Source of the DNA: Eledone cirrhosa
Lineage: Eukaryota
Direction: 5' to 3'
DNA: 64,000 nucleotides
Assembly: GCA_964016885.1 (NCBI GenBank)
Contig: OZ024765.1
Location: forward strand, 3,348,001-3,412,000
In this document: positions 15,141 to 15,805 of the stretch, in pieces
Layout of the letters: each line of letters opens with the position of its first letter
Numbering within the stretch: position 1 is the stretch's first letter
Notes under the pieces: generated by a model
Seen by the model: the letters and a program-made list of their open reading frames with translations, nothing else
Database searches by the model: none
What the model was told of the DNA's origin: nothing
Program-made: the position numbers and the translations under genes

Positions 15141-15263
15141 AAAGTTCTATTTAAAATTGTTGGGATACAACAAGTAAATATTTTTATAACTGATATAAAG
15201 CACTCGACAAGGATTTGGAGTAGATATACGATATTAATAAATGGAAACTATATTTATAAAACC

Positions 15264-15339
15264 ATATTTATTTCATTATACATATTTCAGGCATACCAAA
15301 TTAAATTATGGTATGCCTTCATCAGAAAAAATACAATAT
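15264..15339 (-). ncRNA. Minimal type I hammerhead ribozyme, family 1 (left arm of inverted pair)
   Basis: Reverse complement reads CUGAUGA-AGGCAUACCA...UGGUAUGCCU-GAAA-UAUGUA-UA-AUGAAAUAAAUAU, with a perfect 10-bp stem II. Confidence 0.88.
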
Positions 15340-15459
15340 ATAACAGTTTTAAAAATAAGCTTTGACGTACCCTATTAAAATGCAACCATTCGGATGGCTT
15401 CCAAAAATAATGGTTGCATTTTAATAGGGTACGTCAAAGCTTATTTGTAAAACTGTTAT

Positions 15460-15535
15460 ATATTGTATTTTGTCTGATGAAGGCATACCATAATTTAATT
15501 TGGTATCCCTGAAATATGTATAATGAAATAAATAT
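15460..15535 (+). ncRNA. Minimal type I hammerhead ribozyme, family 1 (right arm of inverted pair)
   Basis: Stem I AUAUUGUAUUUUGU; CUGAUGA (15474-15480); stem II AGGCAUACCA/UGGUAUCCCU; GAAA (15511-15514); UAUGUA; UA^; AUGAAAUAAAUAU pairs back to stem I with one bulge. Predicted cut after 15522. Confidence 0.88.
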
Positions 15536-15805
15536 GGTTTTATAAATATAGTTTCCATTTATTAATATCGTATATATATATATATATATATATAAGTATG
15601 TACACGTACATACATATATGTATACAGACGTACAATAGTATGTATATATATATATATACATACATACAAACACACATATATATATGTACGTATGGATTCA
15701 CCGAACATTTATTATAATGCTCGGTGTATTTGTAAACAAACATCCCGTATTAAGCCGTAGTGTCCAGCAACCATCGTTGCTCGTTTTTTCAACACTGACA
15801 AAGGA

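Follow-up and report, generated by a model that had tools for sequence, protein, structure and literature searches.

Head-to-head fold-backs with paired hammerheads in Eledone cirrhosa: truncated ends of Hydra-clade Penelope-like elements, likely primed at two fixed RNA sites

Penelope-like elements (PLEs) of the Hydra clade are described with an inverted, 5'-truncated copy that often has a tail at one end only, and the origin of inverted copies with a one-sided tail is listed as an open question in the accessible portion of that description (PMC8557442). In Schistosoma mansoni, dual hammerheads on opposite strands, 100-700 bp apart, have been ascribed to truncated PLEs; these pairs belong to the Cercyon family and, like those described here, have a long helix II and a palindromic short helix III, and the available part of that report holds no count of their end types or junction positions (PMC4209133). 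Outward-facing hammerhead pairs from truncated PLEs are thus an architecture already in print. For the Poseidon PLE of Anolis, the accessible text describes cutting and extension of both strands in vitro, two internal reverse transcription start sites that bound the tail, a predicted protein dimer, and insertion that does not need the hammerhead (PMC11167929). Finally, animal non-LTR retrozymes are PLE-derived, noncoding, and hammerhead bearing; as far as that preprint's available portion goes, they form head-to-tail tandem units, whereas the loci considered here are single head-to-head pairs (bioRxiv 10.64898/2026.07.22.740005).

We analyzed 64,000 nucleotides of Eledone cirrhosa DNA, hereafter the window (assembly GCA_964016885.1, 3.0 Gb; contig OZ024765.1, positions 3,348,001 to 3,412,000). 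An earlier note, made from the letters alone, had described four inverted repeats in it with an outward-pointing hammerhead in every arm. We recovered all four, with arms that are 93-98% complementary (Table 1), and the core CUGA(U/G)GA-stem II-GAAA was found in each arm. Two points of that description need correction: a tail of 88-91 nt lies outside one arm only, and because the hammerheads are on opposite strands, any transcript has just one in sense. Contigs of four sequencing runs at the main locus were short and repeat-laden and did not bridge it. Our reading, to which we assign a probability of roughly 80%, is that the fold-backs are head-to-head, 5'-truncated PLE ends of the Hydra clade lying in (TA)n, that the two target strands likely serve as primers for reverse transcription from two fixed positions within the RNA, and that the hammerheads are likely passengers. 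A by-product of Penelope replication, which the earlier note offered as its alternative, is the supported reading.

Table 1. PLE-derived features of the window. Positions count from its first letter; in the x coordinate, zero is site B and site A is x=-91.
Feature	Position	Strand	Details	Basis
(TA)n target, left flank of main locus	15096..15137			sequence
Tail of main locus, site A to site B	15138..15228	-	91 nt; one arm only; abuts (TA)n at site B	sequence and landmarks of natural reference L035
B arm of main locus	15229..15390	-	pLTR copy truncated 5'; 5' end x=-252	
Type I hammerhead	15262..15340	-	core start 15325; predicted cut 15277/15276	cut inferred from hammerhead consensus
A arm of main locus	15391..15570	+	pLTR copy truncated 5'; 5' end x=-270; first 18 nt are the "loop"; site A abuts (TA)n	
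Type I hammerhead	15459..15537	+	core start 15474; predicted cut 15522/15523	cut inferred
(TA)n target, right flank of main locus	15571..15594			sequence
Fold-back arms, main locus	15221-15390/15409-15578		170 nt, 98%; 18-nt loop	
F3 pair	23177..23603		tail ~23177-23267 and B arm (-); A arm (+) ending in (TA)n; cores 23374(-), 23497(+)	
Fold-back arms, F3 pair	23263-23409/23462-23608		147 nt, 93%	
F2 pair	52103..52564		A arm (-), TA filler, B arm (+), tail 52477-52564; cores 52203(-), 52382(+)	
Fold-back arms, F2 pair	52097-52283/52302-52484		two blocks, 96-97%	
F4-like pair	63223..63600		tail ~63223-63310 and B arm (-); A arm (+); cores 63411(-), 63496(+)	
Fold-back arms, F4-like pair	63307-63419/63488-63600		113 nt, 96%	
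Pair without duplicated sequence	43177..43368		~17-nt B stub (-) and one-hammerhead A arm (+)	
Pair with broken outer end	46908..47093		32-nt B stub (-) and one-hammerhead arm (+) from ~x=-268	
A arm with hammerhead	14168..14560	-	core 14451; split by inserted repeat ~14217-14399	
Solo B arm	42141..42301	+	truncated within stem II; flanked by (TA)n tracts	
Hammerhead cores without partner in the window (n=3)	14451, 43274, 47022	-, +, +		

Judged by its sequence, every arm is the 3' end of a Hydra-clade PLE, truncated on its 5' side, and four subfamilies (F1 to F4) are represented. Exact tag matches to the four number 1257, 1125, 830, and 8354 across the genome (~11,500). A natural reference copy, L035, has a 743-codon open frame with reverse transcriptase (RT) and GIY-YIG motifs. 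Its hammerhead precedes the AUG by ~240 nt, in sense, and recurs 4234 nt later, as part of a direct repeat of >1.2 kb with a unit of 4234 nt, that is, a pseudo-LTR (pLTR) from a partial tandem; the element also contains internal (TA)n. The L035 protein has 413 relatives at E<=1e-30, and its motifs comprise RWR, DKT, YRDD, CxCX5C, YxG, and CxxC..E..N..CxH without CCHH; the RT and YxG..R..H motifs are kept across 13 aligned proteins. The Hydra signature of DKT with RWR is present in the query, with RWK in several relatives; the CxCX5C linker, the CxxC and CxH around E and N, and the absence of CCHH were read off the alignment; and the outer ends lie in (TA)n, as in the Hydra clade. Support from Pfam was weak. 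There the L035 protein matched neither RT nor GIY-YIG, and 13 family members gave weak RT matches in 2 and a weak GIY-YIG match in 1, while a PDB profile search returned no significant match.

Membership in the clade is therefore assigned by motif match to the published definition, with supplement sequences compared by eye. Shared with the Hydra clade, as far as its accessible description goes, are DKT, RW(K/R), CxCX5C, CxxC/CxH, the lack of CCHH, (TA)n, the hammerhead, and the inverted copy with a tail at one end; in contrast, the unit here is 4.2 kb with a long 3' region whereas Hydra elements are generally under 3 kb, and the tail is 88-91 nt against a published 30-40 (PMC8557442). The unit length of 4234 nt thus falls outside a trait that is descriptive, though not diagnostic, of the clade. 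The Hydra set includes an octopus family, Hydra-1_Obim, and two hammerhead tags of our subfamilies had no matches in the available supplement; they are not that family (PMC8557442). These are new Hydra-clade families, and the fold-back stubs themselves are ordinary transposon debris of a known kind. Assignment to Neptune or Nematis was ruled out on motifs. A MITE or fold-back DNA transposon was rejected because the ends are asymmetric (A versus B) and the inner junction is variable, and a non-LTR retrozyme because the pairs are divergent rather than head to tail, with one sense hammerhead per strand.

The 3' ends of the arms sit at either of two positions, site A or site B, both against (TA)n. 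When loci were selected by their hammerheads (80 loci, with 97 of the 100 hammerhead matches listed first for F1), 51 of the 56 divergent junctions joined an A end to a B end; 2 were A+A, none was B+B, and 3 were unclear. The tail is visible in the printed end of one of these A+A cases. A second sample, which overlaps the first, was selected by the tail and comprised 100 B ends. Here the partner was an A end in 57 cases and a B end in 2 (a single insertion, L163), so that A accounts for 57/59 resolved partners; the remaining ends had an inverted partner that was unresolved (13), were scored as solo (26), or lay at the edge of the fetched DNA (2). Parsers disagree on short or diverged partners, and we give the most conservative count; other parsers gave several of the solo B ends a short A partner. 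On inspection, five pairs first typed as A+A proved to be A+B of other subfamilies, leaving L040 as a true A+A and L163 as B+B. Neighboring tags no more than 8 kb apart tell a similar story among the first 100 listed for each subfamily, with 16 divergent and 1 convergent in F1 and 27 and 1 in F2, at spacings of 44-4359 bp for both. Either arm may be the longer, the tail occurs only on B, and several B arms consist of the tail alone. Arm length ranges from ~17 bp to >3 kb, and many pairs have one hammerhead or none. A literature search, whose coverage left out most subscription journals and bioRxiv supplements, found no published test of this A+B rule.

The two arms of an insertion also resemble each other in their alleles. 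Across 48 polymorphic columns, arms agreed in 659 of 679 comparisons, where 60% would be expected, and 58 of 71 pairs agreed fully; L085 and the mis-paired rows L076 and L163 were left out. L085 duplicates L084 and was also dropped from the arm-end pile-up and from the two-hammerhead and core-change counts. Both carry the same junction, 61 kb apart in opposite orientation (C1:211.60 and 211.66 Mb), likely as a segmental inverted duplication. The earlier note had proposed that arms are closer to each other than to other loci. Within the window this is true because the four loci represent four different subfamilies. At the main locus it fails against genome-wide copies: at least 41 places elsewhere match the right arm at 100% over 162 nt (40 of 887 candidates scored), whereas the two arms of the pair have 3 mismatches in 167 positions. 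The comparison of arm-to-arm with locus-to-locus divergence that the note had suggested nonetheless favors the pair: in 67 of 84 rows the distance within a pair was smaller than the between-locus median, and in another 14 it was equal, a few rows being mis-paired. This likeness is compatible with one RNA per insertion, with two RNAs from a single donor, and with later gene conversion.

Alternatively, a single cDNA could fold back and copy itself, by snap-back replication or later hairpin repair. This would accord with the shared alleles and with 33 perfect palindromes in F1 that are centered on a self-complementary 8-mer and fall into two allele classes, 32 of them having the same allele in both arms. 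Among ten such palindromes examined, nine were A+B and one was unresolved. We consider this route improbable, however. It requires one arm to lie wholly inside the other, yet many A arms reach further 5', the tail is found only on B, and some pairs have no sequence in common (L076, L099, L100, L116, L134, L146, and L171, and those at 43177 and 46908 in the window). Moreover, it leaves the fixed stop at A without explanation. The nonoverlapping pairs contradict snap-back as a general route, although it could have produced the perfect palindromes. In the cases with long A arms, a B-only tail, or no shared sequence, neither arm was copied from the other, so that both were likely primed on RNA. 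A single RNA per insertion is not universal, since the right arm of L117 (4390-4930) mirrors the left for ~60 nt and then continues into the hammerhead and tail of another subfamily.

Priming of both arms on RNA is the reading we favor, and the sequence around the two sites suggests how it might work. Site A is located 140 nt, and site B 50 nt, upstream of the AUG. Each is followed on its 3' side by a UA patch of 5-7 nt and then by RCTCC..GAGY and GCTTTA. The B copy of this signal folds with a 5-bp stem in which an A-U of the A copy has become G-C, and of 30 read-through copies examined (out of 38) all but one, 29, have it with small variants; the A copy is visible within the tails of F2-F4. 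The target primer presumably pairs with the UA patch. The endonuclease would cut both strands of the (TA)n, and each target 3' end would pair with a UA patch and prime at A or B. The two cDNAs would then stop, often by running off a putative RNA 5' end ~276 nt upstream of B, and would be joined through 0-8 nt of microhomology or filler. In L1 twin priming, two target-strand primers on the RNA likewise lead to a head-to-head inversion. L1 inversions arise without duplication and their second site is variable, whereas in the present pairs neither site varies and overlap between the arms is usual. In favor of dual priming, the related Anolis enzyme cuts and extends both strands from two start sites that bound the tail. 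Those sites are within the ORF and have no homology to the target, while here they lie upstream of the AUG and each is followed by a UA patch, and the Anolis starts, as given in the accessible part of that study, count against the UA pairing suggested here (PMC11167929).

The size of the fold-backs may reflect where the short arms end. Of the tail-selected arm ends, 36 fell in x=-280..-251, whereas the 30-nt windows on either side had 11 and 6 (at-risk counts are without the long A arms). The upstream limit of this pile-up, near -276/-277, is the A of a CACT motif that all four subfamilies have, 64-90 nt upstream of the core. Relative to that A, 93 arm ends of F2-F4 were distributed as 16 in -3..+14, 5 in -39..-4, and 4 in +15..+32, with 50 arms extending beyond -40. 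The zone holds the ends of both main-locus arms and of the A arm of the F2 pair, which ends at 52291 on the A itself; the 5' end of the A arm at 14168..14560 lies ~5 nt upstream of the motif. The recurrent size of 300-380 bp follows from this pile-up of short arms at the CACT motif. The earlier note had listed random inversion points, together with a lack of RNA, editing, or cleavage ends, as a sign of inert insertion scars. These points do vary from copy to copy; they are not wholly random, as they cluster at the conserved motif. The pile-up likely marks the 5' end of an RNA, and the CACT motif presumably resembles an initiator. A conserved TATA box was rejected, with canonical spacing in F3 alone, as was a splice acceptor, since AG is not kept across subfamilies (both by eye). 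Promoters of PLEs are reported, in the accessible text, to sit in the pLTR (PMC6765202). Only 1 of 30 read-through copies (B into the ORF) ended in -280..-251, which speaks against one start site for all RNAs.

The hammerheads are of type I; their stem II is long, and their stem III is short and self-complementary. Two copies are predicted to form a dimer, and helix II begins with an A-U or G-U pair instead of the usual G-C. This PLE form of the motif cleaves poorly, likely as a dimer, according to the available portions of two reports (PMC6765202, PMC4209133). Among the Rfam matches listed at E<=1 (150 of 365), there was no hammerhead model, only microsatellite-driven miRNA matches and a tRNA. 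No pile-up of 5' ends was seen at the cut site (x=-138), where the interval -145..-131 had 0/76 B ends and 2/46 A ends. Across the genome, patterns for junctions at -138, -137, and -140 gave 102, 91, and 21 matches, of which 14/30, 9/30, and 17/21 inspected were scored as junctions. Some of these are repeat insertions or (TA)n abutments, and an excess, at most 2-3-fold, is not claimed. We regard the hammerheads as likely carried along as passengers.

Two arrays nevertheless give an indirect hint of hammerhead self-cleavage. L287 (G000:C1:377084647-377087670), an incidental case (1 of 30), comprises 1.6 tandem turns of a 285-nt unit in which ORF position +190 is joined to the predicted cut nucleotide (1-nt ambiguity), with the same internal deletion in both turns. 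L399 (G000:C26:23054300-23056200), from a targeted search, comprises ~8.5 turns of a 97-nt unit, similarly joined at the predicted cut site with 2-nt ambiguity, and part of the array was later block-duplicated. Both have their 3' end at site A, and two control junction lists contained no short same-strand arrays. It is possible that these arrays are copies of small RNA circles, or the result of template jumps off a cut 5' end.

The earlier note envisaged a different role, an orientation-independent self-processing hairpin whose double-stranded RNA (dsRNA) would be a substrate of ADAR or Dicer or would silence the ribozyme; on such a view the short fold-back would itself be mobile or under selection. 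Part of this holds up in silico. A transcript through a short pair is predicted to zip into dsRNA with the ribozyme unfolded, and the modeled silencing is complete, with 0.00 expected pairs for stem I and stem II in 8/8 full-hairpin strands. In addition, predicted hairpins reach -167 to -263 kcal/mol, and short two-hammerhead pairs make up 16 of 99 tail-selected insertions. A dedicated self-processing unit, on the other hand, is not supported, in view of inner junctions that spread over kilobases and vary between copies, the sole recurrent one being a microhomology with two allele classes; of two complete hammerheads in only 18 of the 99 insertions (a lower bound); and of the coreless fold-back that adjoins the main locus. 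Rare changes are not significantly scarcer in the core (15/744) than at other positions (185/6386; p=0.2, low power), and a weak A>G excess was found in only 1 of 269 F1 arms. On balance, such a selected unit has a small chance of being right. The remaining alternative, that two separate insertions or an assembly artifact set two copies back to back, draws on the targeting of (TA)n by PLEs and the internal (TA)n of this element, and is very unlikely given that 97% shared donor alleles are not expected of independent events, that pairs are nearly always divergent and A+B, and that arm mismatches and a one-sided tail misfit an assembly palindrome.

The stubs could represent more than debris. In an extension of dual priming that is less likely than not, they are a genome-wide fossil record of whole PLE insertion. 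A single protein dimer would use base pairing at the two duplicated signals of an uncut RNA to prime both (TA)n strands; the first cDNA would be displaced by the second primer, short products would end by run-off at the conserved pLTR start, and occasional hammerhead-cut RNA circles would be copied round from site A, as in L287 and L399. Were this true, circle copying would be in vivo evidence that weak ribozymes cut. More immediately, the family supplies countable rules, namely, one A and one B end, shared donor alleles, a twin signal, and a 5' pile-up, and its exact RNA coordinates allow a direct in vitro test of dual priming. Furthermore, thousands of near-perfect hairpins would be a large potential source of dsRNA in the host.

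The window contains other repeats near these elements. Next to the main locus, at 14920-15095, a fold-back with 55-nt arms and a 2-nt loop lies between (TA)n tracts without a hammerhead core; it has a one-sided flank of ~65 nt with an ACTC..GAGTAC motif and is likely the stub of another PLE family. The right flank of the main locus (15600-15900) is itself a repeat, and at L066 a B arm that lacks an A arm lies beside a similar flank. An extra 50-nt A-end stub (63621-63671, minus strand) stands tail to tail with the element at 63309 over (TA)12. A SINE-like repeat of ~190 nt is often found within these elements where they are AT-rich (14217-14399, 22900-23045, and 63760-63940; also L063 and L120). 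A short, degenerate-looking frame at 62944-63100, which matched no Pfam family, is presumably like an N-terminal Capicua motif. Broken pieces of a LINE reverse transcriptase occur at 5050-5966 (RVT_1, E 7e-7), and a tRNA-like match at 57220-57291 that scores above the Rfam gathering threshold may be the head of a SINE.
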